Shown: positions 34,863 to 53,683 of the stretch, piece by piece
Layout: each line of letters begins with the position of its first letter
Numbering within the stretch: position 1 is the first letter of the stretch
Assembly: GCA_030605345.1 (NCBI GenBank)
Contig: JAUWIN010000004.1
Span: forward strand, 1 to 54,216
Length of the DNA stretch: 54,216 nucleotides
Origin: Candidatus Brocadiia bacterium
GTDB lineage: Bacteria > Planctomycetota > PUPC01
Direction of reading: 5' to 3'
Program-made: the position numbers and the translations under genes
The notes under the pieces: generated by a model
What the model was told of the DNA's origin: nothing
What the model saw: only the letters and a program-made list of their open reading frames with translations
The model's database searches: none

Positions 34863-34901
34863 TACGTAGCCACTCCGCAGAGCAGCAACGCGAGTTACCG
34901 G

Positions 34902-35090: not shown

Positions 35091-35167
35091 TGTGTCTCCT
35101 CGTCAGTTCAATCCACGCTTCCTTCTCGCCACAGACCGATATAAGCATCGGCCTCCACCCATATACG

Positions 35168-36945: not shown

Positions 36946-37174
36946 GCAAATTCCATGCCAACGCTGGGCAAATATGCAGAAAAAACCTTAACACCCTGCA
37001 AAATAGGAGCTTACAGAAAGAGCAACCAGCCGACGCAAACGCGGCCATGTTGCGTAAAATAGACATGAAAAAGCCGCAATTCGGGCGAAAACAGCGTAGG
37101 TGTCTGTGCCAGTGTGACTTAGGCCCATGTTGCCGAAAAGCAACGTGCGGGCAAAGTGTTGCGTTTGGGCAACG
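36946..37174 (-). promoter_or_regulatory. Sigma54 promoter module 1 (-24/-12, enhancer palindromes, IHF-like sites)
   Basis: TGGCATGGAATTTGC at 36946-36960; TGTTGC-N6-GCAACR-like sites at 37048, 37128 and 37157; TAAC-N17-CTTA at 36989. Confidence 0.8.
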
Positions 37175-37238
37175 CGCCTGGCGGGCGGAAACAGAGCGAT
37201 CAGGAACCGTTACAACCTAGGGGCTTCTCCCCGGATCG

Positions 37239-38435
37239 TCAAGTATTCGCGGTCTTCTCGGCTGAGGCTAGGTCGATCTCCAAGTAGTCTGCAAGGTCGT
37301 GCATCGTTTTCATCCGCTCAAGGAACGCGGGTAGAACGTCGGCGCCCATCAGCTCGCGGAGGAACGGCAGTTGCGACTGAAGCCCGGCGAGGTCCTGCCT
37401 GGTCGCTTTGGGGTGACCTGCTACGAAAAAGAGCGCCGACTTGTATTCTTCAAGCGCCTTGAGGTGCTCATCCCGGTCGAGCACACGCTCGCCGGATGCC
37501 AGGTACTGATCGACGTAGGTAGGAAGGTTCCGCCGCAAGGCCTGCGAAACCGGTCGCACGTAGGGATGACAATTATAACGCTTGAAACTGACGTAGGCCA
37601 ACAGGTGGAGCAGGTCGCAATTCGTCTCTATCGACCGGGCGGTATCCTGTGTCAGGATGCCTCGGTCCTCCATTTCCCGCATGCTTTTTCCACGGTCGTA
37701 ATGGACGAACGTCAGTGGCGATATCCTGGCGGGGAATGGCGCCTTGGCGAATTGGTCGAAACGGGGGTCGTAAATGGTGCCCCGATATTCATCCCCCAGC
37801 GCATCGCGCATGAACCGCTGTTTTGGAGACGCCTGCTCGGAGAGATGGGCGGCCTTGACCTTCTGTCCGGGTACAAGCATGGGATAAGGAAGGAGCGAGC
37901 GGTCGTGACCGTTGACAACACAAGGTGTTCGCATGTGAATCGCGATTTTCAACGCGACATTCCCATACAAGGACGAGCAAATCCCGCAGCCGAACATCTC
38001 CCGCAGCCCGTACCGCTCACCGTTGAGGAAGCCGTAGCGTATCGCCCTTTTCCAGACATTGTCATCGACCCGGAACTTCATGAGGTCCACGCCGAGCTTT
38101 CGGGTGACATGCTCCGCGTTCCGAATCGAGAGATCGTTCACGAACGGATGCACCACGAGGCACGCCAGCGGCCTCAGGCGGTATTTCTCTTTCAGGAGAT
38201 ACAGAACATACGAACTGTCCTTTCCGCCACTGACCATCACGAGGGCGTGATACAGGTGGTTATGGCCTCGCATCTGCTCAAAGCCCTGCTCCATGGCTTT
38301 GACGAACGGCGCGGGCGCTGGATCGACCAGAGTATCCTGAGCGCAATCCGAGCAGATTCCATCGTTCCCGATGGAGAGGCCGGGCATCGCCGACGTGCAG
38401 ATACATTGTTCGCACACTTTTGTCTCTGATGTCAT
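37239..38435 (-). CDS. PP-loop ATPase, N-acetyl-sugar amidotransferase (WbuX)-like
   Basis: N-terminal CxxC...CxxC, VMVSGGKDSSY PP-loop, CGIC and ETNC motifs. Confidence 0.75.
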   Translation of the reverse strand: MTSETKVCEQCICTSAMPGLSIGNDGICSDCAQDTLVDPAPAPFVKAMEQGFEQMRGHNHLYHALVMVSGGKDSSYVLYLLKEKYRLRPLACLVVHPFVNDLSIRNAEHVTRKLGVDLMKFRVDDNVWKRAIRYGFLNGERYGLREMFGCGICSSLYGNVALKIAIHMRTPCVVNGHDRSLLPYPMLVPGQKVKAAHLSEQASPKQRFMRDALGDEYRGTIYDPRFDQFAKAPFPARISPLTFVHYDRGKSMREMEDRGILTQDTARSIETNCDLLHLLAYVSFKRYNCHPYVRPVSQALRRNLPTYVDQYLASGERVLDRDEHLKALEEYKSALFFVAGHPKATRQDLAGLQSQLPFLRELMGADVLPAFLERMKTMHDLADYLEIDLASAEKTANT

Positions 38436-38465
38436 GGTGCTCCCTTCCGAAGGACCAGCCGGCGT

Positions 38466-39551
38466 TCATCCGCCTGTCATCGGGGCTGAGGGGCGCGGCA
38501 CCTCGTTCCAAGGCACAACCAGGTCCAGGCCCATGGTGCGCAGGGTTCCCGTCGGCTTGGCATCCAGGTCACGGTCAGCGATTTCCACGAAGTTTGGGTA
38601 ACGGCTTTCGTCGATATAGAAAACGAGGCCGGTAATGCCAGCCTCGTGGCACGCCTTGGCCCCATCGCCGATAATCAATGGGATAGCCCAGCCGCCGCGA
38701 AACTCTTCAATGGCGGCGAATCGGGGGACCTCGAGTATGTCTCGTTTGACCACGCCTACGTAACTGGCAATAATCTCATCGCCCCTGAACACCACCCGCG
38801 AATGAGGCTGTGAAAGTTCATGCGGGTCGGGGCCGATCCCATCGGCAAAAAACATTCGGAAAAACTCGTCAACCTTCCGCAGGCCCACCCGGTCTAACCG
38901 GACCACACGGATATCCTCGGGGATAGCCCCTCGCCGACGATAGCCTTCTACCACGCGCATACAAACATCCCGCAGACGCTTCGTGCCAAGGCTGTAGCTC
39001 GTCTCCGTCAGTTTCACCTTGAAATGGAGTCCCTGAAGGCATTGTTCCAGGAGCAAGCCCACCTCGCTGGAAAAGGTGCACTTGAGACATTTCGCACCGC
39101 CGGCTGCTGCGCGCGCGATGCCGGCTCGCAAAAGCGGGTGCAGCACCGAGTCCGAGTCTTGATCCGCCCGGGGTGGCTCGGAGGCTGGGCGCACACCCGC
39201 CGCGAGGCTGACGGCGAGCGTTTGCATGTGGGACAGCCGTAACGCGATAGCGCCGAGGATTTCGTCCTTCCCCGCGCGGTGAATGACGAGGATTTCGTGT
39301 GCGTCCGGGTCGCGAAACGCCTTGTCAAACATCCCACATAGGACAGGTTCGTCGGCGGGCAAGGCCGGACGGATGACCCAGTCGGACCTGTCCAGCGCCC
39401 TTCGAGTCTCATGGGCAGCCTTCCCCGCATCAGGTGGGATGTCGTCGGGGGTTTTGTTTTCGCCAGCCAGGGCGTTTTGACTGAGGTAGCTATCGAGGCG
39501 TCGATCGGCCTGGGCGAGGTCTTCGTCGAACCGGCTGGCCCATGCCTCCAC
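38466..39551 (-). CDS. C-terminal tandem GNAT-like part of AlkP-TPR-GNAT protein B
   Basis: VIRPALPAD and PRFAAIEEFRGGWA GNAT motifs. It is in frame with 39714..41573 across a single TAG (54 open codons in between) and paralogous to 41739..43025. Confidence 0.7.
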   Translation of the reverse strand: MEAWASRFDEDLAQADRRLDSYLSQNALAGENKTPDDIPPDAGKAAHETRRALDRSDWVIRPALPADEPVLCGMFDKAFRDPDAHEILVIHRAGKDEILGAIALRLSHMQTLAVSLAAGVRPASEPPRADQDSDSVLHPLLRAGIARAAAGGAKCLKCTFSSEVGLLLEQCLQGLHFKVKLTETSYSLGTKRLRDVCMRVVEGYRRRGAIPEDIRVVRLDRVGLRKVDEFFRMFFADGIGPDPHELSQPHSRVVFRGDEIIASYVGVVKRDILEVPRFAAIEEFRGGWAIPLIIGDGAKACHEAGITGLVFYIDESRYPNFVEIADRDLDAKPTGTLRTMGLDLVVPWNEVPRPSAPMTGG

Positions 39552-39713
39552 CTCTCGCCTAACCTGTTCTACCGCAGCGCGATACTCCGGCGTTTTGTCG
39601 CTGGCTGAGTCGTCGAGGCGCTCTTCCGGCTGGCTGACGTCAGGCTCGAATCGGCCGTCCAGGGGAATTCCGTCAGCTTGAGCTTCACGAATCTCGCTCA
39701 GGTACTCCTGGGC

Positions 39714-41573
39714 CTACTCGTAGTCCGGGTCGAACCGTAGCACTGTCTCGAAGGCTTCTTTCGCCCGATCCACTTCGCCGAGTTTGAGCAAGCTTCTCCC
39801 CAGGAGGAGGTGCCCCACAGGTTTCGAAAAATCGACGCCCACTGCTTTTAGTGCGGCTTCGGCGGCGTCCTTGTACTGCCTCACCTGATGCAACACGGTC
39901 GCCAGTGCAAGATGCGCCGGGAGGAAATGCGGGTCGATCCTGATTGCGCGGCGCAGTGCAGAAATCGCCTCCCGTGGTTGGCGCGCCTGACGATACATCT
40001 CAGCCAGATAATAGAACAGTCTGGGCAGTGGCGGATTCCCCGCGGCGGCTTCCTTAAACAGGCTCAGGGCCTCGCCGAGGTCTCCTTGATCCTGGGCGAT
40101 TGCGCCGGCCACAAACTTGCCGATCGGCGCGTCACGATGAGCCTCGGCGAACGGCTCCATCACGGCCAGTGCTTCGTCTGTCAACCCGTTGATATACAGA
40201 GCCTCGGCCACCGTCAACCCGATGTCCCACCGCAGCGGGTTGGTGTAGTACAGCCGGGTCAACAGCGGCAGGGCCAGTGCCGGACGAGAGGAATTCAGAT
40301 AGGTCTGCGCCAGGTTCCAGTCGTTCTCCGTTTGCGTCCTCAGAGCTGCCTTGTCGGCGTATACTGCAGCGAAGCCTATTCGGTCCATCCACGGAACCCG
40401 TTGTGGCGGCTCGACAGCGCTGGGCCGTTCGGGCGAGATGGTGTCCCAAGAATCAACGGTCTCCGCCGAAGGTAAGGGACAAGCGAAGGCGTCCTCCAGG
40501 GCACGCCCGTCCATGTCGTTCGCCAGCGGGAGCCCACACAAGCGCAGAATGGTCGGACAGATGTCAAACACCCTGGCGCCATGAATGAGTTCATCCTCAC
40601 GAACCCCGCTCGCCCGGAAGGCAAAAATGCCCTGCCCACGGTAGAACGACTCCTTCGGCCGTGAGTGGTTCAGAAAAGCCGCCCGAGGAACTTGATGATG
40701 AGGAACATATCCCCGCGGGGAATACAGCAGGACTGCGGCCCCTTCGCCGGCCAGCTCAATAAGGCGGCCAAGAAGCAAATCACACAGGCGAATAGCACTG
40801 ATCCCCACCTCGTTGAACAGTTCAAATTCACGCTTGTCCACCCAGTCCAGGCGGGGACGATGGTATTCCAGGAACCTCAGCCACAGCAGGTCAATCGCCG
40901 GATAATTGACCGATGTTACGTCCCATTCGGTGTTCTCCATCAGGAAGGTGACGACCGCGTGCACCGACAGGGTCTCGGCCAGGACGCGCGCAATCACCCC
41001 TAACCGCCAATCCCTGGGCTCGATCTCCTTCAACCGCGGTACGAAGAGTGCCATCGTATGGGGGTCGATGTCCTCGAGCGAGACAATGAACTTTTTCAGG
41101 GGACTAAGCTGGTCGTCCGGAAAAACGCTGTCATCAGGAACATCAAAGGTGGTTCTCCAATTTGGCGGTAGCTTCTGGAAAAAGGCGGGACCGACAAATG
41201 TGCCGTTTATTTGCTCCGCCGGGCCGGTGGTCGGGAAATTGACCACGTTGCAGCGGCGGTGGTTCTGCGAGAGAATGTCCCAGAATGCTTTGGCCCGACG
41301 TGACAGATTGCTGACCTGTCCTACCGTGCCGTCCGGACGGACCTCCTGAGTCCCCAGGACGCCGTGCTTGTCGGCATATTTGCCGGTCGCCAGGGAGTTG
41401 TACACTATGGGGGCAAGTAGTGGACGGGGCGCGAACAGCTCGCCCATCACGCCGTGTTCGATAAATTGGCTGAGGTTGCGCAGTTCTCCGGCGTCGAGCA
41501 GCGGGTTGATAATGTCCCAACTCGCCCCGTCCCAGCCGACAAGCACAATTTTGTTACGCTTGCTCTGGTCCAT
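39714..41573 (-). CDS. N-terminal AlkP/NPP-superfamily-like plus TPR part of protein B
   Basis: VLVGWDGASW, SLATGKYADKHG and DICPTIL...DMDGR, followed by TPRs. It ends at an in-frame TAG at the end of the last TPR. Confidence 0.8.
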   Translation of the reverse strand: MDQSKRNKIVLVGWDGASWDIINPLLDAGELRNLSQFIEHGVMGELFAPRPLLAPIVYNSLATGKYADKHGVLGTQEVRPDGTVGQVSNLSRRAKAFWDILSQNHRRCNVVNFPTTGPAEQINGTFVGPAFFQKLPPNWRTTFDVPDDSVFPDDQLSPLKKFIVSLEDIDPHTMALFVPRLKEIEPRDWRLGVIARVLAETLSVHAVVTFLMENTEWDVTSVNYPAIDLLWLRFLEYHRPRLDWVDKREFELFNEVGISAIRLCDLLLGRLIELAGEGAAVLLYSPRGYVPHHQVPRAAFLNHSRPKESFYRGQGIFAFRASGVREDELIHGARVFDICPTILRLCGLPLANDMDGRALEDAFACPLPSAETVDSWDTISPERPSAVEPPQRVPWMDRIGFAAVYADKAALRTQTENDWNLAQTYLNSSRPALALPLLTRLYYTNPLRWDIGLTVAEALYINGLTDEALAVMEPFAEAHRDAPIGKFVAGAIAQDQGDLGEALSLFKEAAAGNPPLPRLFYYLAEMYRQARQPREAISALRRAIRIDPHFLPAHLALATVLHQVRQYKDAAEAALKAVGVDFSKPVGHLLLGRSLLKLGEVDRAKEAFETVLRFDPDYE

Positions 41574-41738
41574 AGGTAACATTTCACCCGTCCGTAACGA
41601 GCAGGTCAAGAGGTCTTGGCAAGTTTTGCGAGATCTGAGCCTGGCGCCAGAGGCCCGGCATTGTGGACGCGCAGATACGTTGCCCGCACACTTTTCCCTG
41701 TGATGCTATTGCACTCCTCTCCGAAGGCGCAGATGACC

Positions 41739-43025
41739 CTACGATTCCCTCGGGCCGGGGCGTGGCCAGGGCACGACCAGATCCAATCCCATGGTCCACG
41801 TTCGGGTGATTTCCTCCGCGCCGGTCCGACGGCCGATCCGGATCATGTCGGGAAAGACGCTTTCGTCGGCATAGACAACGATTGACCGCAGTCCACTATC
41901 GTAACCGGCCTTGGCACCATAGCCAATAAGCATCGGCGTCGCCCAGCCGGTCTGATATTCCGGCAATACGGCAAGACGCGGTGAAATCCACGCTTCGCCC
42001 TGCACGTAGCCCGTGTAGGCCGCGATGATCTCGTCACCACGCCGGATGACCAGGGACAGCCGTTCATCCAAATCCAGGCGCCTGGGCCCAATGCCATCGT
42101 CAAAGAAGCGGCGGAAGAATCGTTCGACCTTGTACATGTGCACTTCCCGAAGCGAAACAACCTGAACGTCGTCCGGAATTGCTTGCCGCCGCTTGTATCG
42201 CTCGACGACCCTTAGACACCGGTCGCGTGTCGCAAGCATGTCCATCTGAATCACGGTTTCGCGTTTCTTGACCCTGAACCCCAGTTGCTCGAGACCCTCT
42301 GCCAAGTGTTCGCGCCCTTGCGGCGAAAGATTGTATGAGACCGTGCTCACTCCTCCCGCGGCGGCGCGAGCCACCCCAGCGCTAATCAGCAGCCACCACA
42401 GGGCCTCCTCATCCAAGCCAGCGGCGGCCGCCGCGGCGACAGACACCGGGTGTGCCGCGAGCCCGACGCGCTTCCCAGCATTATCGCTCATGCGCAGAGA
42501 CACAGCGCCGAGCAGTCGATTTTCTCCGGCCTGGTGAAGGACGAAGACATCGTGGCGATGATGCTCAGCCAGCACTGGTACGGTCAGTGGCCCTAACTGA
42601 GCCAGGTCGGCTGGCATCACAGGTCGTACCACAGCGTCTGCATCCTTCAGCACCGGAATACGCACGGTGCTCGGTGCGGCGCGGGGTGTCTCTCCGTTCT
42701 GGTGTGCGAGTTGGCTGGCGTTCTCGGCGAGATATGCGTCTAACTGTTCATCCGCTTGCTGGAAGCAGCGAATGTAGTGATTGGCCCAGGACATGACCTC
42801 TTGACGGGAGCGATGGACCCTCGGAAGCAGCTCATCTACATCCCGGCGGGGCAGCGCCACAGGCGCTTCCTCATCTTCGTCGATAGCTCTCGGTTCGTCG
42901 CCGGCTTGCAGGGCTTCCAGTCGCGCTTTGGCCGACTCCAGGTTGCTGCTGAAACGAAGGGCGTTTGCGTAGGCCTCTTTAGCTCGCTCCAGATCGCCGA
43001 GTAGTTCCAGACACGTGCCCAGCAA
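41739..43025 (-). CDS. C-terminal TPR plus tandem GNAT-like part of AlkP-TPR-GNAT protein A
   Basis: Begins mid-TPR; VVRPVMPADL and PRLAVLPEYQTGWA; in frame with 43044..44804 across a single TAA. Confidence 0.7.
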   Translation of the reverse strand: MLGTCLELLGDLERAKEAYANALRFSSNLESAKARLEALQAGDEPRAIDEDEEAPVALPRRDVDELLPRVHRSRQEVMSWANHYIRCFQQADEQLDAYLAENASQLAHQNGETPRAAPSTVRIPVLKDADAVVRPVMPADLAQLGPLTVPVLAEHHRHDVFVLHQAGENRLLGAVSLRMSDNAGKRVGLAAHPVSVAAAAAAGLDEEALWWLLISAGVARAAAGGVSTVSYNLSPQGREHLAEGLEQLGFRVKKRETVIQMDMLATRDRCLRVVERYKRRQAIPDDVQVVSLREVHMYKVERFFRRFFDDGIGPRRLDLDERLSLVIRRGDEIIAAYTGYVQGEAWISPRLAVLPEYQTGWATPMLIGYGAKAGYDSGLRSIVVYADESVFPDMIRIGRRTGAEEITRTWTMGLDLVVPWPRPGPRES

Positions 43026-43043
43026 GTAGTGGGCTGGCGCATA

Positions 43044-44804
43044 TTAGAACTCGACCGTCAAGGCCTTGAGCGCTTGCTGGGTAGCAGCTTCGTAGTCCCC
43101 GGTTTTTCGGTGCACCAGGGTCAGTCCAAGGTAGCCCAGGATATAGTTCGCATCGACCTTGACGGCCCGGCGGTGGCACTCCAGGGCGCGGTCCAAATCT
43201 CCCGTACGGCGGTAGACTTCACCCAGGCGGAAATACAGTTGCGGAATCGGAGGGTTGTCCTCCGCCGCCTCCTCGAATAAGCCCAGCGCCTCGGAATCTC
43301 GGCCCTCATATTGCGCTATCATGGCGGCCATGAACTTCCCGGTAGGTCTCTGCCCGTGAACGGCTACGTAGTTCCGCATGACGGTTACAGCCTGCTCGAC
43401 GAGCCCATTTACGTATAGCGCGTCTGCGACCAATGGCACCATGTCCGTCCAGAATGCGCAGGTGTAATACAACCGCGTCAAGAGCGGCACGGCAAGGTCG
43501 GGACGCGACGAATCGAGGTCGGCCTCGGCTTGGTTCCAGTCGTTCTGTACCTGCACCAACAGTGGCGGTCGATGGGCATAAGCCGAGGTAAAGCAGATCA
43601 TCTCGGTCCAAGGGATTGGGCGCATGTCCGCAGGCAACTCTGGCCGTGTAGGTGGGCAAGTCTCCCAGGTCTTGATTGCCTTTGCCTGTGATAACGGTTG
43701 GGTGAACGCGTCCGCCAGGACGCGCCCGTCCATGTCCTTCGGTACGTCAACGCCACACAAGCGCAACACCGTCGGACAGACATCGACTTCCCGGACCCCC
43801 TGAATCAGCTCACCCTGACGCGTGCCATCGGCGCGTATGACGAAGATTCCTTGCGGCCGATGCTGCTCGGCCTCGGAGTGAGGCCCGGGCGACACGGTGC
43901 CTCGGGGCACCTGATGATGCGCCACGTAGGCCCGCGGCGAATACACTATCACGGTCGCATTCTCGCCGGCCAGTTGCAGCAAACGACCCAAGAGCAGATC
44001 GCAAAGCCGGACCGAACTGTTGACCACGTTGCTGAACAGATTGAATTCCGCTTCATCCACCCAGTCCAGGCGAGGCGGATGGTAACGAAGAAAGCCCCGG
44101 GAAAGGACCTCGATGGCCGGGTAATTGACGCTCATGACGCGCCACTCGGCCCTCTCCATCAGCCAGGTCGCCACAGCATGCACCGAGAGCGTGTGCGCCA
44201 GCCCCCTGGCCACCTGCGCCAAGCGCTTGTCCCGAGGCGGCAATTCGCGCATGCGCGGCACGAACAGTCCGACGGTGGGCGGGTCCAGGTCTTCCAGAGA
44301 AACGATGAACTCCTGAAGCGTCGACGCCAGATCAGCTGGAGAGACACTGTCCTCAGGCACATGCACCGGGCTCCAACTGCTGGCTCGCGGTGGCCCAAAG
44401 AATCCGCAACTGACAAAGGTGCCGTTGGTCTGCTCGGCCGGTTCGGGCGTCGGGAAATGGACCACGTTACAGCTAACGCCTTTTTGTGACAGGACTTCCC
44501 AGAACGCCTTCGCGCGGCGCGATTGGCTGGTGATGGGTCGCACAGACCGACCGTGGTCATATACCTCATGAGTGCCGAAGATGCCGTGCTTGCTCGGGTA
44601 CTTACCCGTCGCCACGGACGTGTAGACCATCGGCTCCATCAGGGGCCGGCTTGAGGTCATCCCTCCCATCGCTCCAGTTTTAATGAGCCCGGCGAGATTC
44701 GGTAACTCGCCGCCGTCCAGCAGGGGCGTGATCACGTCCCAACCGGCTGCATTCCAGCCAACCAGCAGGACCTTCGAGGTCGTCGGGTTTCTCATGAGCG
44801 CCAT
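43044..44804 (-). CDS. N-terminal AlkP/NPP-superfamily-like plus TPR part of protein A
   Basis: LLVGWNAAGW, TSVATGKYPSKHG and DVCPTVL...DMDGR, followed by TPRs; colinear paralog of 39714..41573. Confidence 0.8.
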   Translation of the reverse strand: MALMRNPTTSKVLLVGWNAAGWDVITPLLDGGELPNLAGLIKTGAMGGMTSSRPLMEPMVYTSVATGKYPSKHGIFGTHEVYDHGRSVRPITSQSRRAKAFWEVLSQKGVSCNVVHFPTPEPAEQTNGTFVSCGFFGPPRASSWSPVHVPEDSVSPADLASTLQEFIVSLEDLDPPTVGLFVPRMRELPPRDKRLAQVARGLAHTLSVHAVATWLMERAEWRVMSVNYPAIEVLSRGFLRYHPPRLDWVDEAEFNLFSNVVNSSVRLCDLLLGRLLQLAGENATVIVYSPRAYVAHHQVPRGTVSPGPHSEAEQHRPQGIFVIRADGTRQGELIQGVREVDVCPTVLRLCGVDVPKDMDGRVLADAFTQPLSQAKAIKTWETCPPTRPELPADMRPIPWTEMICFTSAYAHRPPLLVQVQNDWNQAEADLDSSRPDLAVPLLTRLYYTCAFWTDMVPLVADALYVNGLVEQAVTVMRNYVAVHGQRPTGKFMAAMIAQYEGRDSEALGLFEEAAEDNPPIPQLYFRLGEVYRRTGDLDRALECHRRAVKVDANYILGYLGLTLVHRKTGDYEAATQQALKALTVEF

Positions 44805-44978
44805 ACTCCTACACGGGGCGGGCTCGGCATGCTTCCGCCGACGTGGATAGCATCGGCATCAAACACCCCTCGCTTAAAGGAATTATCCTAATTGACACGC
44901 ACAAGACCTGACCTTCACTGTCACGGCGACGATTAGCTCGCTTGTTGACGAAGTCCGCTGAGCGCGGCCGCCACCTGC

Positions 44979-46997
44979 TCACGCGCCTCGCCGCTTGTGA
45001 AGCTCTGCCCAGTCGTTTGTGAAGCTCTTGAATATGACCGGAAGCAGCAGGTTCGGCTCCAGCGTATAGCGAAGGACATCATACAAGAAGACATTGGGAC
45101 TGTCACTTGAGCTCCGCAACCGAAACCGGCGATAGCCCAGGTCGTAGACGCGCTTCAGCTCCGCGGTGGCGAAATTGCACGACCGAAAATCGGCCGCCAA
45201 CGTCGCCCTCGGTGCCGGCGACCCGCGCTGACCGGCGTCCGCCGCGCCGCCCAAAGCAGAATCCTCGTTGATCAGCATCTCGATTCGGTCACGGTCAAGC
45301 TGCTCCAACAACTCGTCGTCGAGTCCGTCTTCGGGACACAGGACGACCGTGTCGAACCGTTCGGTCATGGCCTTGTAATCGTCCGCTTGCCCACAACCGC
45401 CTTCCGTCGCCGTCCTGACCACGGAGGCCGTGAGCTTCAGTTCCGGATGGCCAGACCGAATGTGATCGGCCAGCAAATCGCTCGCCAAGATGCACCCATT
45501 GAGCGCCCGTCCGTTGTCCAGAATCTCCAAAATCCGATTGCACGTCTCGTCGGCAAGATCACCCGGCACCAGCCGATGGCTCTTGAAAACGCAATAAACG
45601 CCGATGCCCAGGTCATTGAAACGCCCAACCGTCTCAGCCCACGCATCAAAGTTGACCTTGCGTACTTGCGGCCGGGGCAGCCCGTTCCAAGACACACTAA
45701 GCCCGCCGCACACCCCGTCAATGTTCAGGTGACACTCGAACCGATCCGTCAACACGGCAAGAACGTCACGCAGCAGGCGTCCGTGAACCGATAAACCGCC
45801 AATCCTCCAACGAGCGTCCGGCCAAAGAGGATGTCGAGCACCCTCCCCTGTCGGCAGCCGATGTCCGACCACGGCGGGGACCTCCACCACCATCGGTCGA
45901 ACTACCACCGAATCGGCTCGACGCCCCTCATCGTTGTCGAGAACAACACCATCTGGCGAGCCAGCCTCCTGGCACGCGGCGTGAATCTTCCTCACCGCTT
46001 CGCCCGCACGCTGCCCGGCCTGACCCGAAACGAAGGACTTGAAGATGACGGGCGCCAGGATTTCCGGCTCGACCGCAAACCGAAGCAGGTCGAACAAAAA
46101 TGTCGCCGGCATGTTCTGCCGGCCCTGCAGCTTGAATCGACGGTAGCCCATCTCGTAAACCCGCAGCATCTCTGCGGTGCTGAAGTTGCAGGACCGCACA
46201 GCCGATGTAACCCTTCGCAACGGCATCCGGCAATGGCGTCGTTCCATCAACGTGTAGGGGTTGTCGTCGGAGTCAACGGGCGCGGCCTTCAACACCGTTG
46301 CCATCACCTCGTAGTCCTTCACGCGGTTCGGGCATCGAAAGGCACAGTCCTCATTGACCAGGATCTCTATCTTGTCCCGGTCGAGCTGATCCAGCAAGTC
46401 GTACTTAAACCCGTCGTCGGGATGAAGCATGACGCTGTCGAACCGTTGCAGTACCGATCGGTAGTAGCCAAGATTGCCGCGCCCTTCTTCTTCAGTAACC
46501 TTGATTATCGAGGCGGTCAGCTTGAGACCCGGGTGCCGCCTGCGAACGTAGTCATACAGCAGGTAACTGGCCAGGATCACCCCGTTCAGGCCCCGGCCGT
46601 TGTCGATCGCCTCCAACAAAAGGTTGCACGCCCGATTCTCCAGATCGCTCTTCTCCAGCAGATGATTGGTGAATGTGTAGAGCACCCCGATCCCCACGTC
46701 GTTGAATGTCCCGCCCATTGCCCCCAGAGCCTGCTCTGTTGGTACCGGCACGATACTGAAGCGCCCGCAGTTCCACGGAACCTGAGGAGAGCCATGAATC
46801 GCGTCGAAATTGAGACGGCAGCCAAATCGTTCCTGCAGGACGCTGAACACCTGGAGGATTAAGCGGTCATGCCCGAACAGGCCGGTCAGATTCCAGTGCG
46901 CCTCCGGCCACAGAGGATTCCTCGCTGCCAATCCGAATGGCAGCGCACACTTCATCATGGGTGCGTCCCTTCTCAACACGTAGTCTCCAAGCCGCAT
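44979..46997 (-). CDS. Tandem two-domain protein, peptidase U32-like (putative Fe-S TIM barrel)
   Basis: Internal duplication (PLWPEAHW/PLWPDARW, LDNGR.LNG.ILAS, LKLTAS, QLDRD.IE.L.NED, RSCNF, GYRRF). Domain 1 has CAFRC and FKLQGR (compare U32 KIEGR). Confidence 0.6.
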   Translation of the reverse strand: MRLGDYVLRRDAPMMKCALPFGLAARNPLWPEAHWNLTGLFGHDRLILQVFSVLQERFGCRLNFDAIHGSPQVPWNCGRFSIVPVPTEQALGAMGGTFNDVGIGVLYTFTNHLLEKSDLENRACNLLLEAIDNGRGLNGVILASYLLYDYVRRRHPGLKLTASIIKVTEEEGRGNLGYYRSVLQRFDSVMLHPDDGFKYDLLDQLDRDKIEILVNEDCAFRCPNRVKDYEVMATVLKAAPVDSDDNPYTLMERRHCRMPLRRVTSAVRSCNFSTAEMLRVYEMGYRRFKLQGRQNMPATFLFDLLRFAVEPEILAPVIFKSFVSGQAGQRAGEAVRKIHAACQEAGSPDGVVLDNDEGRRADSVVVRPMVVEVPAVVGHRLPTGEGARHPLWPDARWRIGGLSVHGRLLRDVLAVLTDRFECHLNIDGVCGGLSVSWNGLPRPQVRKVNFDAWAETVGRFNDLGIGVYCVFKSHRLVPGDLADETCNRILEILDNGRALNGCILASDLLADHIRSGHPELKLTASVVRTATEGGCGQADDYKAMTERFDTVVLCPEDGLDDELLEQLDRDRIEMLINEDSALGGAADAGQRGSPAPRATLAADFRSCNFATAELKRVYDLGYRRFRLRSSSDSPNVFLYDVLRYTLEPNLLLPVIFKSFTNDWAELHKRRGA

Positions 46998-47472
46998 TCA
47001 GCTTTAGGTAAGATTCTAACGCGGTGCCAGCTTGGAAGCAAACGACAACCAGGCGCATCGTGCGCCGGACCGGATTGAGGCCAAGCTTGACGATGGCCCC
47101 TGTTGACTCCAAACCCAGAGGCAGGAACCTCATACCTTCAGCAAGTGTTCCGGAAGCTGAAACTTGCGCCAGGATCTGGACGCCAGATGAAAGACTGCTG
47201 AGCCCAATCACGATTGGTCGAGTTCACCAGGGAGTTCAGGGCAGGTCACGCATCGTGAGCGATGCGCGAAGATAACCACGCCACAGCGTTCAACCCCCCA
47301 CGGACTTGGTTCCGCGAATCCGACTTGGGCCTGTTGGACAGTTGTCTGCAGCGATGCCACAGCAGGCTCAGTACGCACAACCCCGCTGCGTTAGAGGCTG
47401 CCGGGTCCGTGACCATCCGACCCTCCCGTCGTCGGAGCAGGTCGCCGAATTCCCGGTGCCATCAAGACCGAT

Positions 47473-47508
47473 GACGCTGGGGAGGACGTCAAGGGCCGCC
47501 CCAGCGTT
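47473..47508 (-). terminator. Hairpin immediately after the PEP-CTERM gene
   Basis: ACGCTGGGG...CCCCAGCGT stem; no U tract. Confidence 0.4.
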
Positions 47509-47516
47509 ACTCAGGT

Positions 47517-48409
47517 TCATCCGCGCTTTTTCCGGCGTGCTGCCAGGCCAACACCCGTAAGGAACAGTACCAAGACCTGGGGCTCTGGGACCAGCGCACC
47601 GTCATGCCCGCCCTCTGACGAAACGAACAGCGAATAAGGCTCCCACCACGGCGTGAGGCCGATCTCGCCAACGTCCACCCAACCGCTGATGAGCCAGCCA
47701 GCCGATCCGTCGGGCATCGTCTCGGCTCCCAGGATACCTCGCTGCTGCCTGTGACCTCGGTGTCAAAGTCCTTTATCCGCGTCATGTAGCTGTTGACCTG
47801 GTCGTCGCCGTCCTGGTCATCGGGGTAGTACCACCTGTCGGCGGTTTTCATAACCTGCTGATAAGTTTCGAATGTGGCGGTCGCAGGCACGGCGTCCGTG
47901 TACAGGTCGCCCTTGGTGACACTGGACCAGGTCTCTCCTGGATATTTCTGCGTCACGACGTTGGCGTGGTCGGTAAGAGCGATGGCGTGCCTCTGGACGT
48001 CCGGCCCGGTCTCCGCAAAGGGGTCCGGTGACCCGACAGTGATCCACAAGTCGCCGGGGCTCATGTTTACGGGGTCGACGTCGGCGTAAGAATCCAGTGC
48101 CATGACCCCGCTTTCTGGCATGCTTGTCAAGATCTTGAAGTAGAGCTTGTCGCTGGTGAGTTTGGTGCCCATCTCCCAAATCTCAAAATCAGCCTCGTCG
48201 GCGGTATCGCCAGGCTTGACAGCCGCATCGCCAATGAAGCTCTCGTCCTGTGTGTAGTAATCCAGAACGAACCAGTACCCCGCTTCATATCTGTAGCCGC
48301 CGGGTAAATTGGGATCCCGTGGCGGACTGTACCCTGAAGCGATTGGACACAATCCCGCGAGACTAATTGCCACGATTGCTAAAATACAGGTCCTCATAGT
48401 GGTCCTCAT
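47517..48409 (-). CDS. PEP-CTERM protein with a single-base frameshift near 47725
   Basis: The signal peptide and body (PGDLWI) are in ORF 47507..48409. The tail LVPEPQVLVLFLTGVGLAARRKKRG is in the shifted ORF 47517..47717. Confidence 0.82.
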
Positions 48410-48567
48410 TATTGTAACCTCCTAAATGTGCCGCAGGCGTAAGGCCTTGCGAAAGTAACAGTGGAACCGGACACCACCGAACCTACCAGCTACCGAAGCT
48501 GTGATGCTCGGCCCTCCGGCCCAGCACTGGCCCCGAGCAGCGTCCGTCTCGGGAGAACCAGTCTCCC

Positions 48568-48606
48568 TTGCGTGTCTCAACTCATAGGCATTACCCCTTT
48601 CATTCA
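48568..48606 (-). repeat. Intergenic leader element, diverged copy D
   Basis: GAATGAAAGGGGTAATGCCTATGAGTTGAGACACGCAA aligns with the core of copies A-C. Confidence 0.6.
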
Positions 48607-48699
48607 CTGCGGTGGGAGACCAGACGGCTGACCCCGCCCTCCCAACTCTGGCTGCTATGGCGCAGTCGTCGGCTGCTGAGCGCGCCTGCGTCCCGACTG

Positions 48700-48787
48700 G
48701 CCGGAAATGCTCCGGCGGTTGATTTGCGAGTTGCCGGATGCTGTGAAATTGTGCCGGTTCGTGCTTACGAATGCTTCTCCCTGCCAT
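48700..48787 (-). pseudogene. Degenerate paralog of the small zinc-ribbon ORF 34902..35090
   Basis: MAGRSIRKHEPAQFHSIRQLANQPP aligns with MAPRRICKHERARFHSIQRLGNQPP. The Cys ligands are lost and similarity stops after QPP. Confidence 0.65.
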
Positions 48788-48823
48788 CTTCCCTCCGTTT
48801 CACAACTTATCAGTTGCTTTACC

Positions 48824-49052
48824 GCAAATTCCGTGCCAAAGGCCCGAAAAATCCTGGGGGAAATCCTAACTGCACATACAATAAAGGGTTACAACATTGC
48901 CTGGCGCCAGCTCCAAGTAAGTCATGTTGCAAAAAATACCCGTCCCAAACGCCATATCTGCCCTGGAAACAGGCTAACCTCTGGCGAGCCCGGAGCTTAG
49001 CCTCATGTTGCTGAAAAGAAACACGGAGAGGAAATGTTCCGTTTCCGCAACG
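48824..49052 (-). promoter_or_regulatory. Sigma54 promoter module 2
   Basis: Consensus TGGCACGGAATTTGC at 48824-48838; palindromes at 49006 and 49035 plus a half-site at 48925; TAAC-N17-STTA at 48867 and 48975. Confidence 0.85.
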
Positions 49053-49081
49053 CGTCTGGCGAGCGGAAACTGCGAAGGGAA

Positions 49082-49420
49082 TCAGGAACTGTCGGGACCC
49101 GAGGGCGAGAATTCTTCCTCGGTGAGGTCGCCTGTGAAATACCGTTCCAACTCCTCCGGCGTGCACTCCTCACGCGGCGGGCAGTAGTCGGGCAGGTCAC
49201 GGACATAGGGGCAATCGGCGGGGAAAACGCCGAGCTGAATGCCTTCCTCAACGGTGAGGCAATGCGGATTCAACTCGAACCGATTTTCGTAAACGGTGCA
49301 CAGCCTGCTTTCGGGGTCGTAGAACTTGCAGAAGGACGGCAGATAGACCACCTGCCCGTCGATGACTATCTTCTCGTGGCAGCACTTGCCGCAACGGCGG
49401 CAGAGCCTCGCATCAGCCAT
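49082..49420 (-). CDS. CxxCxxCC cysteine-cluster protein (YkgJ/YcgN-like)
   Basis: LCRRCGKCC, CKFYD...CTVYENRF..NPHC and PADCPYV. Confidence 0.8.
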   Translation of the reverse strand: MADARLCRRCGKCCHEKIVIDGQVVYLPSFCKFYDPESRLCTVYENRFELNPHCLTVEEGIQLGVFPADCPYVRDLPDYCPPREECTPEELERYFTGDLTEEEFSPSGPDSS

Positions 49421-49442
49421 AATCAAGTCCCGTAGCGCGCAG

Positions 49443-50600
49443 CTAGCCGGTGAGTTCCTCCCGGGCGAATGTGATTTTGGGGCGGCGCAGGCCAACGTTG
49501 AGCAGCAGTGACACCGCCAGCAAAGAGGACAGGGTCGAAGACCCGCCGTAACTCACGAAGGGTAGGGTGACGCCGACAATGGGCAGCAGGCCGATGGTCA
49601 TGGCGACGTTGATAAAACCTTGCACCACGAGCAACGACACTACGCCCACGGCGATAAGCCTGCCGACCGGCTCGCGGCAGCGCCGGGCGATACTCAGGCC
49701 AGCCGCAGCAAGCAGGAGGTACAGCACGATGACGACGTTGGCGCCGACAAAGCCCGCCTCCTCGCAGATGACGGCGAACATGAAATCGGTGTTGCGGTAG
49801 CCCAGGTAGTTCAGCCTGTTCTGCGGCCCCTTGCCGCGACCCCTCCCCCAGACTTGGCCGGAGCCGACGGCAATCCTGGACTGGATCATGTGGTGGAACC
49901 GACCCACTCGTTCCGCCTGTGTCAGTTCCTGCCCCTGCCGGACCCACGCGGTGATGCGGCCTTGCTGCTCCCTGCTCATGCTGAACCACGCCAGAGGCAG
50001 TAAGACCAGCGTCGCCGCGGCGAGCAGCGCCAGATGCCTGATGCGGGTGCCGGCGACGAACACCATTGCGACGGCGGGAGCGACAAACATCAGGGCGGTC
50101 CCGAGGTCCGGCTGGGCGGCGATCATGGCTGCGGGCACCGCGGCGATGCCGAACGCCGCGAGTCCGCCTGAGGCGGACCTCATGCGCTTCACCCTGTGCC
50201 GGCCCGCCAGGAACCACGCAAGCGCAATGATGGTGGTGATCTTGACCAGCTCCGACGGCTGGAGCCGCACGTTCGCCGGCAGCACCAGCCAACTCCGGGC
50301 GCCGTTGACCACCCTGCCGAACACCATCACCACCCCCAGCATCGCCAGCCCGCCGAGGTAAAGTATGAGCGACATCGCGGCGAGGGTGCGGTAGCGGGGG
50401 ACGAGCAGGGCCGCACCGAGCACGATGCCGACTCCGATCCATATTATCTGCTTCTGAGGGCTGGAGGTATAGTAGCCCTGCCCCGCCCGTGCCGAGCGGT
50501 AAGACGCACTTTTCATATAGGGCCAGGTGAACACCATCAGCGCCAGCACGGCCACGACCACCGCCCAGTCGAGCCGCTTGAGTTGGCGAAAGCTCGTCAT
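49443..50600 (-). CDS. rodA: SEDS peptidoglycan glycosyltransferase RodA
   Basis: GARSW, QPSELVK, QPDLGT, TDFMFAVICEE and GVTLPFVSYGGSS; downstream of PBP2. Confidence 0.92.
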   Translation of the reverse strand: MTSFRQLKRLDWAVVVAVLALMVFTWPYMKSASYRSARAGQGYYTSSPQKQIIWIGVGIVLGAALLVPRYRTLAAMSLILYLGGLAMLGVVMVFGRVVNGARSWLVLPANVRLQPSELVKITTIIALAWFLAGRHRVKRMRSASGGLAAFGIAAVPAAMIAAQPDLGTALMFVAPAVAMVFVAGTRIRHLALLAAATLVLLPLAWFSMSREQQGRITAWVRQGQELTQAERVGRFHHMIQSRIAVGSGQVWGRGRGKGPQNRLNYLGYRNTDFMFAVICEEAGFVGANVVIVLYLLLAAAGLSIARRCREPVGRLIAVGVVSLLVVQGFINVAMTIGLLPIVGVTLPFVSYGGSSTLSSLLAVSLLLNVGLRRPKITFAREELTG

Positions 50601-52630
50601 CGGCGCTCATCCTCTCCGTGCTGTTCAACGCCAAGCAAATCCAGCGGCATGGCTTCGAGTATCCTGCGTGCGACGGGTGCGGCTGTGCTGCCGCCGCCCT
50701 GTCCGTTGGTGAGGCGCTCGATGGCGACTGCGAACGCGATTCGCGGCTGCTTGTGCGGCGCATAGCCCACAAACCAGCCCACGTCGTCGCCGGGCCGCGC
50801 GGCAGTGCCGGTCTTGCCGCAGACCTCGAACGGCCTGTGGAAATTTCTGAACGCGCTGTTGCCCGTTCCGCCGTATTCGTTCACCACCTTATACAACCCA
50901 AGCCGCACCACGCTCAGCGAGTGCTTCGAGAGACCAAGGTTGCGCGGCTTGCGTTCATCAGGCAGGACCTCAGCGGCGGGGCTGTCGGTGTCGAACGGGC
51001 GGAGCTCACTGACGCCCTTCAGCGGCATCAGCCCCCCGTCGTTGGCGACCGTGGCGACCATCTGGGCCACCTGGAGCGGCGTGACCACCAGCTCGCCCTG
51101 GCCGATGGCCAGGTTCAGCAGCTGCCCGCCGGGCGCGGTCAACGGAAGGTTCCCCCCGTATTCCCGCGGGATGCGGACGCCTGTTTTCCTGCCGAGGCCC
51201 AGCCGTGCCGCCATGCCGATGAGTGCTTCGGCGCCCGCCCGCTGGGCGGTTCTGTAGAAGAAAATGTTGCAGGAATACTTGAACGCGTCGGGCAGCTCGA
51301 CCGTGCCGTGGCCGCTTCTGCGGTGGCAGCGGAACGTCCGCCCCCCGAACTGGATGGAACCGGTGCAATTGACCGAGGGCGGGACGCAGCCCTTCTCCAG
51401 CGCCGCGAGCGCGGTGACGATTTTGAAGACCGAGCCGAGCGGGTAGCGGGCCCTCACGGCGCGGTCCCACAGCGGCCGGTCGGGGTTTTCGGCCAGTTGG
51501 CCGTAGTCCTGGCTGAACCGCGCCGGGTCATACTTCGGGCTGGAGGCGATGGCAAGGATGCGGCCGGTGCGGACCTCGACGAACACAACCGCGCCGACCT
51601 TGTGTTCCAGCGCGCGCTCGACAATCTTCTGGAGTCGCGAGTCGATGGTAAGAACCACGTCGCGTCCTGTCTCTGCGGGCGCGTTGGCCAGCACGCGCTG
51701 GCGGCGGTCCATGTTGTCGCGCTCGATGCACCGCATGCCGAAGTGCCCGCGCAGAATGTCGTCCAGGCTCTTCTCGATGCCGGCGCGGCCGGCTCGGAGG
51801 GTCATGAAGTATCCCCTTCCCGGCCAGCCGCGGTATTTCTCGACCGCCGCTTCCACGTCGCGCGGGTCGTAGTCCGACACGTAACCGACCAGATGCGGAG
51901 CGAGCACGCCGGAGGGGGTTGCCCGCTCGCACCGAGTTTTGACCTGAAAGCCGCGGAACTCGTTCGGCCGGGTCTCGACCGCGGCAACGGTCTCATAGTC
52001 CACCCCTTTGATAACCGAGACCGGCGAGAACACCGGTATGCGGAGCCGGGCCACGTCCACCGCCGTCCTCAACACCCGTTCCAGTAGTTCGTCGCGCGGC
52101 TCGCCGGTCAACTGGGCCAGTTCGCTCACCGAGCGTACCAGCTGCTGGGGGAGTTCGAACTCGTCGCACTGCCGCTCCACCAGATACACGACCGGCGGGC
52201 CATGTTCGCCATGCACCTCGACTTCGAGCTTGGACCAGGCTTTTGCGACCAGGCAGGGGTCGCCGTCGTCGCCCTGTTTGCGGTGTATGTCAAAGTCAGC
52301 GTGGGTAACTCGGAGCAGTTTCTCGCCGCGCGGGACGTAGAACAGGCGGCGGAGGGGGTCGCGTATGCGCCGCTCGCCGGAAGGGTCCAGCCTGCCGATG
52401 ACCACCGCCACGTCGAATGCCAGCCTGTCCTCGGCGAGGACCGCTCCGTCGCTGGTGAGGATGCGTGCCCGCGCTACGTCAAGCGGGAGCAGAGCAACCC
52501 GCTGCCGGTCGGCGTAGCTCCTGTAGTGTTCGCCCCGCACAATCTGGAGGTGAACCAGGCGCGCCTCGACCGCGACAAACGCGGCGATTATGACACAGAA
52601 CAAAACGCCTACGCGGCAACTATGACGCAC
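50597..52630 (-). CDS. mrdA: Penicillin-binding protein 2 (class B)
   Basis: SVFK, SCN and KTGT motifs, N-terminal TM and LTIDSRLQ. GTG start at 52630 follows GGAGGAG. Confidence 0.9.
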   Translation of the reverse strand: MRHSCRVGVLFCVIIAAFVAVEARLVHLQIVRGEHYRSYADRQRVALLPLDVARARILTSDGAVLAEDRLAFDVAVVIGRLDPSGERRIRDPLRRLFYVPRGEKLLRVTHADFDIHRKQGDDGDPCLVAKAWSKLEVEVHGEHGPPVVYLVERQCDEFELPQQLVRSVSELAQLTGEPRDELLERVLRTAVDVARLRIPVFSPVSVIKGVDYETVAAVETRPNEFRGFQVKTRCERATPSGVLAPHLVGYVSDYDPRDVEAAVEKYRGWPGRGYFMTLRAGRAGIEKSLDDILRGHFGMRCIERDNMDRRQRVLANAPAETGRDVVLTIDSRLQKIVERALEHKVGAVVFVEVRTGRILAIASSPKYDPARFSQDYGQLAENPDRPLWDRAVRARYPLGSVFKIVTALAALEKGCVPPSVNCTGSIQFGGRTFRCHRRSGHGTVELPDAFKYSCNIFFYRTAQRAGAEALIGMAARLGLGRKTGVRIPREYGGNLPLTAPGGQLLNLAIGQGELVVTPLQVAQMVATVANDGGLMPLKGVSELRPFDTDSPAAEVLPDERKPRNLGLSKHSLSVVRLGLYKVVNEYGGTGNSAFRNFHRPFEVCGKTGTAARPGDDVGWFVGYAPHKQPRIAFAVAIERLTNGQGGGSTAAPVARRILEAMPLDLLGVEQHGEDERR

Positions 52631-53153
52631 TTCCGAAACTCCTCCGCGACCGCACCCCCAGGAACCTTTCCAGCGGCCGCATCGCGGCAAAGACCAGCGG
52701 GCCGAGCGCCGCTGAATACATCCCCGCCCAAAAGCCCTGCGCCAGAACCGGCCCTGTGTGCCCACCCGCCAGGACGGCCAGAGCAACAGCCAGCGTTCCC
52801 TGCGCCGCAACACACACGGGCGCCAGAATCAGCACTTGCGCCAGCGCACTCTCGAGAAACAGATCCTCGCTGAGTCGGCTTACAGCAACTGCGACCAGCC
52901 CGAAGACCAGCGCCGCCGTGCCCAACGGCAGGTACGAGCCGGCGGAGTAAATGTCCTCCAGCAGCCCCGCGGCCCATCCTATCCAGAACGCGTTCCACCG
53001 CCAACCCTTCCGCAGCGGCTCACGCGCCGCAATGCACACCGCCACCAGCAGCAGCAGGTCCGGGCGGACATGCCGAATCGCCAGCGCCGGCACCATGCTC
53101 GACTGCACCAGAGCGACAATCAGTAACAAACCAATTATGCGAAGCCAGCGCAT
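52620..53153 (-). CDS. mreD: Rod shape-determining protein MreD
   Basis: Hydrophobic protein with RPDLLLLV and GWAAGLLEDI; upstream of mrdA. Confidence 0.85.
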   Translation of the reverse strand: MRWLRIIGLLLIVALVQSSMVPALAIRHVRPDLLLLVAVCIAAREPLRKGWRWNAFWIGWAAGLLEDIYSAGSYLPLGTAALVFGLVAVAVSRLSEDLFLESALAQVLILAPVCVAAQGTLAVALAVLAGGHTGPVLAQGFWAGMYSAALGPLVFAAMRPLERFLGVRSRRSFGSAS

Positions 53154-53332
53154 AGAACCAGCCAGCAGGACCTCCCCCCATAATAAATATCGACACAACA
53201 TACTACGAAACTTTAGCATGAAGTTATAGTGTTCGGTTGGCGCCCGCCGGCTTCCTGCCTCTGGGCTACAGAAAATTTGCCGAGCGCGGAGTTTTCGTTG
53301 CTGTAGCTGCTCGCCGTAAGGGCCAGCCCGAA

Positions 53333-53561
53333 CGTTGCCGAAACGCAACACCGAGCCAGCATGTTGATTTTTGTCAACATGGGCTAAGTTACGGCATCAC
53401 AGTATCTTGCGCCGTTTGTGGGCAATGTTGCGTCTCTGGGCGTTGATTTTGGGCAACATGGGCCTGGTTCGTCACCAAAGGAAAAAGGAGCGTAACATCT
53501 TGTTCCGCAAGGTGTTACAATTCTTCCAACCCTTTTTTACCTCCGTTGGCATGCTATTTGC
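53333..53561 (+). promoter_or_regulatory. Sigma54 promoter module 3
   Basis: TGGCATGCTATTTGC at 53547-53561; palindromes at 53333, 53362 and 53441; TAAC-N17-GTTA at 53493. Confidence 0.85.
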
Positions 53562-53683
53562 GCGTACGCAGGGAAGAACCAATGGACACAATGCCCCGAA
53601 GTAGGGGAGAAACTCTCGTGAGCCAATGGACACAACCGACTGTGGGCGAGAAAGAGAACGGTGAAGAGATAAGGGGTGGCAAC

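Follow-up and report, generated by a model that had tools for sequence, protein, structure and literature searches.

In enhancers of the NtrC/glnAp2 type, tandem dimer sites lie about three helical turns apart and more than 100 bp upstream, and the bound dimers oligomerise into a ring; at nifH and Pu, the promoters activated by NifA and XylR, a site for a bending protein is placed between enhancer and promoter, ~65-80 bp upstream of the start. For PEP-CTERM genes, the described upstream motif of sigma-54 promoters is proteobacterial: Haft et al. (2006, PMC1569441) report it in Proteobacteria only, as a 17-nt motif ending in TTTACA and lying ~63 nt upstream of the sigma-54 motif, and state that other regulators and motifs are still to be found elsewhere. 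In Aquincola, a PEP-CTERM gene has been shown to depend on RpoN (PMC9850573). Here we describe an enhancer architecture in a Candidatus Brocadiia bacterium (Planctomycetota), in which a window of 54,216 nt (the whole stretch analysed, contig JAUWIN010000004.1 of assembly GCA_030605345.1) carries three promoter modules. In each, a -24/-12 box is preceded by palindromes of the form GTTGC-N6-GCAAC, called upstream activating sequences (UAS) below, and by inverted repeats (IR) of the form TAAS-N17-STTA. From these motifs, their spacing, enrichment and conservation, and the kinds of gene downstream, we infer binding proteins, bending and activity, and we assign a probability of roughly 0.78 to the reading that modules 1-3 are enhancer-dependent sigma-54 promoters of one regulon that comprises PEP-CTERM proteins, PEP-CTERM-associated repeat proteins and exopolysaccharide (EPS) genes.

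The window is contig C60 of a 2.28-Mb assembly of 141 contigs (60% G+C, rated 92% complete), whose other contigs are labelled C1, C3, C47, C67, C99, C129 and so on; M1 stands for module 1. Each module reads, toward the promoter, UAS1, UAS2, IR-b, UAS3, IR-a and -24/-12 box (Table 1). The three boxes lie exactly where the initial annotation of this DNA had placed them; no other exact match to TGGCAYGNNNTTTGC occurs in the window, nor any in 100 dinucleotide shuffles of it. In all three, the GG and GC that mark a sigma-54 promoter are conserved and separated by 10 bases, within TGGCAC-N5-TTGC. Across the genome, exact boxes of the form TGGCA[CT][GA]NNNTTTGC number 16, where ~1 is expected from base composition, and 11 of the 16 have a loose UAS (GTT[GT]-N8-[CA]AAC) within 260 bp upstream. 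The gene for the sigma factor itself, rpoN, is present on C51 (PF04552, 134 bits), frameshifted in this assembly.

The UAS has the full motif (CAT)GTTGC-N6-GCAAC(ATG) and, over 34 sites, the consensus (c)(a)(t)GTTGC-tttt(c)(g)-GCAACATgg. In modules 1-3 its 16-mer begins 213 and 184 bp upstream of the T of TGGC. The near palindrome ends 168 bp from the box edge because its 16-mer begins at 184 bp, and UAS1 and UAS2 are 29 bp apart centre to centre; this pairing, with both distances, had been claimed for all three modules and is borne out. The central six bases are A-rich in UAS1 and T-rich in UAS2 in 10 of 12 modules, and these mirrored A/T tracts make the pair a larger dyad. The third site that had been noticed nearer the promoter, UAS3, is also there: it is weaker, keeps its right half GCAACATG intact and ends ~86-90 bp upstream of the box. 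With one mismatch allowed, GTTGC-N6-GCAAC occurs 12 times in the window against 2.07 expected, seven of these within the modules. The genome holds 24 exact copies, 18 of them intergenic on a crude map of open reading frames (ORFs), against none for a reversed control; pairs number 13, with none in the control.

At least 14 modules of this architecture are present in the assembly, modules 1-3 included. The 14 were chosen by eye from 200 sigma-54-like matches with at most two mismatches; a fixed rule, which demands such a box and at least two UAS with at most one mismatch within 330 bp, returns 11 modules genome-wide. Two layouts occur, one with sites near -213/-184/-100 in eight modules (class A) and one near -246/-216/-135 in three or four. 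The exact spacing of modules 1-3 is also held by C3 and C127, while C67, C1 and C82 belong to the same layout class shifted by 1-4 bp; the description of the architecture as base-precise thus holds for modules 1-3, C3 and C127, and fails for these three and for the second class. Ungapped identity between modules 1-3 outside the motifs is 0.43, 0.40 and 0.31, so module 3 has diverged with its spacing kept, as the initial annotation had it.

The association recurs in relatives. Paired UAS are found in five of nine genomes of the same family; outside the family, pairs appear only as two-mismatch matches at control level. At 19 of 21 loci from family relatives, a sigma-54-like box lies 101-281 bp downstream of the UAS (166-281 bp in 18), and the single 18-mer UAS, with at most one mismatch, is enriched in most family genomes. 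At the same stringency the single UAS is strongly enriched in a second family of the class (for example 72 vs 6, 69 vs 0 and 37 vs 2), where exact copies number 13, 18 and 10 vs 0, a sigma-54-like box follows 132-303 bp downstream in 13 of 15 loci (two overlap one promoter), and two ORFs downstream of UAS loci end in PEP-CTERM tails. Distances differ between lineages, and the exact 168 bp is therefore a local feature. What is kept in relatives are repeated dyad-symmetric sites upstream of a -24/-12 box, as expected (at ~80-250 bp) of an enhancer for an NtrC-type activator, and one shared motif of the kind proposed for an enhancer-binding protein precedes sigma-54 boxes genome-wide, in same-family genomes and in the second family.

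Which genes do these promoters serve? Behind the 14 modules, most first ORFs encode PEP-CTERM proteins or proteins associated with them, and one opens an EPS operon, which agrees with the surface-protein regulon originally proposed. Five encode PEP-CTERM proteins (that of module 2 frameshifted), three encode TIGR04393-repeat proteins cut by contig ends (module 3 among them), and two belong to a rare family of 235-269 amino acids and are followed by PEP-CTERM genes (module 1 and C67). The remaining four are the first gene of an EPS priming glycosyltransferase operon (C47), a C25-peptidase/SdrD-like giant protein, an ORF without assigned function followed by MurJ, and a PilZ-like protein of 137 amino acids (C47, ~34499-34909, minus strand; 21.2 bits against a Pfam cut-off of 22.5). 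The apparent frameshift behind module 2 is read from a PEP-CTERM tail that lies in another frame (47517-47762), and the gene behind module 3 is cut by the contig end, with an uncertain start codon. A PEP-CTERM/exosortase system accompanies these genes: TIGR02595 has 24 PEP-CTERM matches at E-values of at most 0.01, all above its cut-off, and exosortase and EpsI genes are present (PF09721 at 153.5 bits, EpsI at 66 bits); the XrtA subtype model scores 126 against a cut-off of 208. A regular expression finds 30 PEP-CTERM-like tails, four of which look false; of the remaining 26, 13 follow a same-strand module at a distance of at most 8.5 kb, and several more stand right at the start of a contig. 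As a separate observation, the PilZ-like first gene on C47 hints at a link between the regulon and cyclic di-GMP.

Table 1. Coordinates of the promoter modules, of the genes behind them and of other features of the window
Feature	Position	Strand	Remarks
Module 1 -24/-12 box TGGCATGGAATTTGC	36946-36960	-	predicted start near 36934
Module 1 IR-a	36989-37013		TAAS-N17-STTA, 28 bp upstream of box; putative IHF-like site
Module 1 UAS3	37049-37064		left half weak, right half GCAACATG intact
Module 1 IR-b	37097-37121		1 mismatch, begins at -161
Module 1 UAS2	37129-37144		GTTGCTTTTCGGCAAC on minus strand
Module 1 UAS1	37158-37173		GTTGCCCAAACGCAAC on minus strand
Module 2 sigma-54 box TGGCACGGAATTTGC	48824-48838	-	predicted start near 48812
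Module 2 IR-a	48867-48891		28 bp upstream of box
Module 2 UAS3	48926-48941		right half GCAACATG intact
Module 2 IR-b	48975-48999		exact TAAS-N17-STTA, begins at -161
Module 2 UAS2	49007-49022		1 mismatch
Module 2 UAS1	49036-49051		1 mismatch
Module 3 UAS1	53334-53349		exact
Module 3 UAS2	53363-53378		GTTGA...TCAAC, 2 mismatches to GTTGC-N6-GCAAC
Module 3 IR-b	53385-53409		1 mismatch, begins at -162
Module 3 UAS3	53442-53457		full palindrome, 1 mismatch
Module 3 IR-a	53493-53517		29 bp upstream of box
Module 3 sigma-54 box TGGCATGCTATTTGC	53547-53561	+	predicted start near 53573
First ORF after module 1, 235-amino-acid protein	35425-36132	-	leader ~800 nt; no Pfam or NCBIfam match
Tandem palindrome	35150-35215	-	between module 1 and its PEP-CTERM array; own promoter element of the array
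Seven PEP-CTERM-tailed ORFs, one a stub of 51 amino acids	28519-34744	-	further downstream of module 1
Gene behind module 2	47507-48409	-	homologous to C104 PEP-CTERM protein, C104 copy intact
Gene behind module 3	53672-54214	+	T5SS/PEP-CTERM-associated repeats, TIGR04393 89 bits against cut-off 23
tRNA	9854-9928	+	Rfam
Histidine-utilisation gene row	10180-15796	+	histidine ammonia-lyase, urocanase, formiminotransferase, imidazolonepropionase-like
RNase P RNA class A	21328-21720	+	Rfam

The sigma-54 enhancer architecture is real and conserved, and it follows the same logic as the proteobacterial PEP-CTERM site with another motif, other distances, another number of sites, the IR and another lineage. 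With the PrsK/PrsR/PrsT system it shares -24/-12 promoters before PEP-CTERM genes, long non-coding leaders, a repeated upstream motif taken as the site of an NtrC-type response regulator, and a link to EPS genes and an exosortase; the gene order kinase-regulator-TPR also recurs here, at a locus on C99. It differs in that the motif is the palindrome GTTGC-N6-GCAAC rather than the 17-nt TTTACA-ended one, that the sites lie ~90-215 bp from the box rather than ~63 bp, that three sites are combined with two IR elements, and that the host belongs to Planctomycetota. TTTACA, the end of the published motif and the only part of it that was tested, occurs between -130 and -60 in 0 of 14 modules. None of 17 matches to the PrsR model (TIGR02915) passes its cut-off of 502.6 bits, the best reaching 438 (C129) and 422 (C99); the best PrsK match (TIGR02916) has 103.6 bits against a cut-off of 300 and covers the generic kinase core only; and the PrsT model (TIGR02917, cut-off 312 bits) scores 24-68 in four TPR proteins, two beside the C99 regulator and two in the window, a similarity at the level of TPR only. 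Set against the published PEP-CTERM box, the UAS is thus not the same element: motif and spacing differ, and curated cut-offs recognise no PrsK, PrsR or PrsT.

Like NtrC/glnAp2 enhancers, the modules have tandem dimer-type sites far upstream of a sigma-54 promoter; unlike them, they have another half-site, a third proximal site, two palindromic IR elements and another regulon. What they share with the IHF-assisted promoters nifH and Pu is a bending-type site between enhancer and promoter, but this site is here the symmetric TAAS-N17-STTA, used twice per module, in place of the asymmetric enterobacterial consensus, and the genome encodes one HU/IHF-family protein instead of an alpha/beta pair. 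A search of full texts in PubMed Central and bioRxiv, which leaves subscription journals uncovered, returned no published description of the motif.

Which protein would read the UAS? The initial annotation had put the activator gene outside the window, and the genome bears this out: nine PF00158 activator genes were found at E-values of at most 1.5e-22, none of them in the window, where the sole PF00158 match is weak (25 bits) and stands beside DUF58/BatA genes. The best candidates are two proteins of REC-AAA-HTH architecture (HTH, helix-turn-helix), encoded on C99 (1376-2821) and C129 (170-1597). The C99 locus runs kinase, regulator, TPR, TPR, and within the flanks covered in family relatives the regulator is found in 9 of 9, the adjoining kinase in 7 and the first TPR gene in 9. 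Five REC-type activators were searched for in the second family that carries the motif; clear orthologues turned up there for the C99 and C129 types only, and the HTH helices of these two are conserved everywhere compared. Phylogenetic profiles do not discriminate between the two, since both occur across the class and in every, or almost every, genome of the family. Activators on C78, C48 and C87 gave no match in five class genomes at an E-value of at most 1e-110, or matches of 44-46% identity only, a result that serves just to lower their priority. When the C99 regulator was searched against genome contigs, the matches were generic activators from many phyla, at best one from a Phycisphaerales metagenome-assembled genome (MAG) at 47%, and the family was not among them. 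In genome G027, a homologous regulator is preceded by a UAS-like pair, which lacks a convincing promoter and was set aside.

The second element of the modules, the IR, is a 25-bp palindrome with seven copies in the window against 0.53 expected. TAAS-N17-STTA elements do occupy the two positions per module that had been noticed, the distal one partly degenerate: IR-a lies 28-29 bp upstream of the box, and IR-b, with 0-1 mismatch, begins at -161 or -162. IR-b is found in all eight class-A modules, 7 bp downstream of UAS2 and between the distal and proximal UAS. Enrichment in the genome is confined to a spacing of 17, with 57 copies against 4-17 at other spacings (N12-N23), 36 of the 57 intergenic against 2-4, and 15 of them 26-40 bp upstream of a sigma-54-like box against 0-1; these promoter-linked copies form two distance groups, at 26-29 and 38-40 bp. 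Five IR-bearing boxes (C5, C21, C42, C56-72170 and C133) have no GTTGC site, so the IR belongs to sigma-54 promoters generally and not to this regulon. A TGGCA box edge and an IR separated by 26-40 bp form a composite that occurs 15 times against 3 in the control here, 69 against 13 in nine family relatives and, for the 15 remaining genomes of the class, 112 against 42; it is not enriched in 16 genomes of the phylum's other classes (64 against 83). If one mismatch is allowed, 13 of 19 family promoters have an IR at -53 to -67, and 5 of 12 in the second family have one at -51 to -63. Such generality at sigma-54 promoters across the class supports an IHF-like architectural role. Conservation is limited to the four outer bases of each half; the inner part has no consistent pairing, and an RNA or DNA hairpin was rejected because inner positions pair no better than chance in most copies.

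The assembly has a single HU/IHF-family gene (C71, 21211-21477) and not an alpha/beta pair, and its product scores 73.5 and 65.9 bits on the IHF beta and alpha models against 37.3 and 32.8 on HU. Judged from sequence, the IR is, with slightly better than even odds, the site of this one IHF-like protein, which would bind it as a homodimer. The initial proposal of IHF-like bending sites is favoured in its substance by the enrichment at spacing 17, the position and phasing at promoters, and the IHF-leaning protein; its narrower part did not hold, in that the sites are not specific to this regulon.

How might such a module work? Each would offer three sites for dimers of one NtrC-type enhancer-binding protein, of which UAS3 is weaker and ~80 bp nearer the promoter than UAS1/2. 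IR-a, 28 bp upstream of the -24 box, or ~39 bp at other promoters, would be bound by an IHF-like homodimer. A bend at IR-b would fold UAS1/2 onto UAS3, so that three dimers could form an active hexamer, a bend at IR-a would bring the hexamer to the closed complex of sigma-54 holoenzyme, and ATP hydrolysis would then open the promoter. Extended to the class, the proposal becomes tentative, and we would bet slightly against it as a whole: the class may use a homodimeric IHF-like protein on symmetric TAAS-N17-STTA as a phase-locked standard part of its sigma-54 promoters, and two bends with three activator-dimer sites may make a pre-folded, hexamer-assembling enhancer in the PEP-CTERM/EPS regulon, analogous to but independent of the proteobacterial PrsKRT system.

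Several points weigh against a sigma-54 regulon built in this way. No RNA run is on record among the sequencing runs listed for this DNA, so that start sites are predicted only, at about 12 nt past the GC, and the map behind the intergenic counts consists of greedy ORFs of at least 100 amino acids that span 91% of the genome. The reading frame of rpoN (C51, ~7852-9300, minus strand) is shifted by 1 nt in a GG/CCCCC run, which leaves the RpoN box directly behind it in another frame; this is likely an assembly error but may be a real lesion. The comparisons link the motif to no activator: no UAS was found near C99-type or C129-type genes in this genome and in family orthologues (20 loci), and orthologues of both with a conserved HTH also occur in a family of the class without clear UAS enrichment. 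The exactness of the spacing is partly explained by paralogy and differs among relatives, and helical phasing of UAS to promoter over all sites, which are non-independent data, gave no decision either way. About seven IR copies lie inside a repeated cassette that includes the 3' end of the gene for the 235-amino-acid protein and are not independent. The HU/IHF-family protein falls below every curated cut-off, of IHF and HU models alike, its best solved relatives include IHF and HU both, and the E. coli IHF consensus is generally given as non-palindromic.

These points feed other explanations of the same pattern. With the UAS and sigma-54 parts unchanged, the IR could serve some other dimeric protein as its operator, for example a global repressor, an anti-activator or a co-activator of sigma-54 promoters. 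It is truly palindromic, and two helical turns separate its half-sites, an arrangement common among dimeric regulators; 42 of its 57 copies are not beside a sigma-54-like box, some also precede tandem-palindrome promoters, and curated cut-offs do not assign the HU/IHF homologue to IHF. A dedicated operator nonetheless sits poorly with an IR at sigma-54 promoters that have different upstream sites, in two distance classes one helical turn apart (26-29 and 38-40 bp), which is where IHF sites of sigma-54 promoters are typically found. It sits no better with a second IR between distal and proximal UAS in 8 of 8 modules, or with the conservation of only four outer bases per half, which suits a protein reading DNA shape over a long footprint. 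We regard a separate regulator as unlikely, if worth keeping in view, and continue to favour an IHF-like protein at the IR.

Could the shared architecture instead be mainly inherited repeat DNA, its exact spacing a trace of recent duplication and not a functional need? Paralogy is clear for M1, C3, C127 and C67, whose identity outside the motifs is 0.52-0.87; duplication also took in long leaders and the genes behind them (M1 and C67 agree at 72% over ~800 nt), and relatives use other distances. Duplication does not account for module 3, C82 and C1, where identity outside the motifs is close to random (0.22-0.41) while the elements stand in the same order with their spacing kept to within 4 bp, nor for a motif-promoter relation that recurs in other genera and another family with unrelated flanks, nor for the concentration of UAS sites in intergenic DNA, and we consider it improbable as the main cause. 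Least probable, to the point of being a long shot, is that GTTGC-N6-GCAAC is bound by a regulator that is not an enhancer-binding protein, such as a repressor, with the true activator binding elsewhere or acting from solution. That no activator could be tied to the motif would fit, as would the second, unrelated operator-like element that also stands before PEP-CTERM genes; but with two or three dimer-type sites upstream of a sigma-54 box, at 90-250 bp, and a bending-type site between, the modules have the standard enhancer layout of glnAp2, nifH and Pu, and the UAS keeps company with the best sigma-54 boxes (the 11 of 16 above) and does so across two families.

The second operator-like element just mentioned is a tandem palindrome, GCTACA-N5-TGTAGC twice and then a TATA-like box, with 15 copies against 0 for a reversed control. 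Besides the copy in the window it is found at C67 ~21010-21050, C47 ~1740-1780 and ~33865-33905, C56 ~39618-39655 and ~47386-47425, and C15 ~6695-6732. Like the sigma-54 modules it precedes PEP-CTERM genes, and unlike them it has another motif and no -24/-12 box; on C47, one copy falls within the leader of the sigma-54-driven EPS operon, ~165 nt from where that leader begins. It looks like a second layer of control over the same genes.

The gene for the 235-amino-acid protein stands just upstream of this element in C60, C67 and C15 (as a remnant on C15), a recurrent position that suggests a cassette. An exact IR copy at 35459-35483 lies inside the 3' end of its coding sequence and is found again in what is left of the cassette on C47, C56 and C15; duplication has therefore spread some of the IR copies. 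The leader of module 1, which is the stretch that agrees with the C67 copy, contains several AAAGGAG Shine-Dalgarno-like boxes and mini-ORFs. Five relatives of the protein family were found, one of them from a Planctomycetota MAG; a protein atlas search gave unnamed clusters only, and the AlphaFold model, with a mean predicted local distance difference test score (pLDDT) of 51, is too poor for a structure search. An Rfam scan of the module leaders gave no known RNA family. Its matches elsewhere in the window are an RNase P RNA of class A and a tRNA, besides a ZTP match below threshold inside the gene for the 235-amino-acid protein; the two RNA genes and the histidine-utilisation row are ordinary genes.

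Other neighbours of the modules deserve mention. An ORF of 62 amino acids with a CxH...CxxC pattern (34902-35090, minus strand) has 89% DNA identity to a copy on C67 and is probably a real small gene, because most of the differences are synonymous (11 of 17); a decayed copy lies directly after the module 2 promoter (48713-48787). Between modules 1 and 2 sit two paralogues (39714-41609 and 43044-44804, minus strand) that combine a type I phosphodiesterase/nucleotide pyrophosphatase domain with C-terminal TPR repeats and adjoin a WbuX-like N-acetyl sugar amidotransferase (37239-38435).

Transcription control in Planctomycetota is almost unexplored, and the modules supply a PEP-CTERM-linked sigma-54 motif outside Proteobacteria for a class of this phylum. 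They outline a concrete regulon, with at least 14 promoters in this genome and up to ~70 sites in relatives, and narrow its activator to two testable candidates. They also offer a candidate recognition site for the lineage's single IHF-like protein; if this is true, promoter architecture would become predictable from sequence in these uncultured sediment bacteria.

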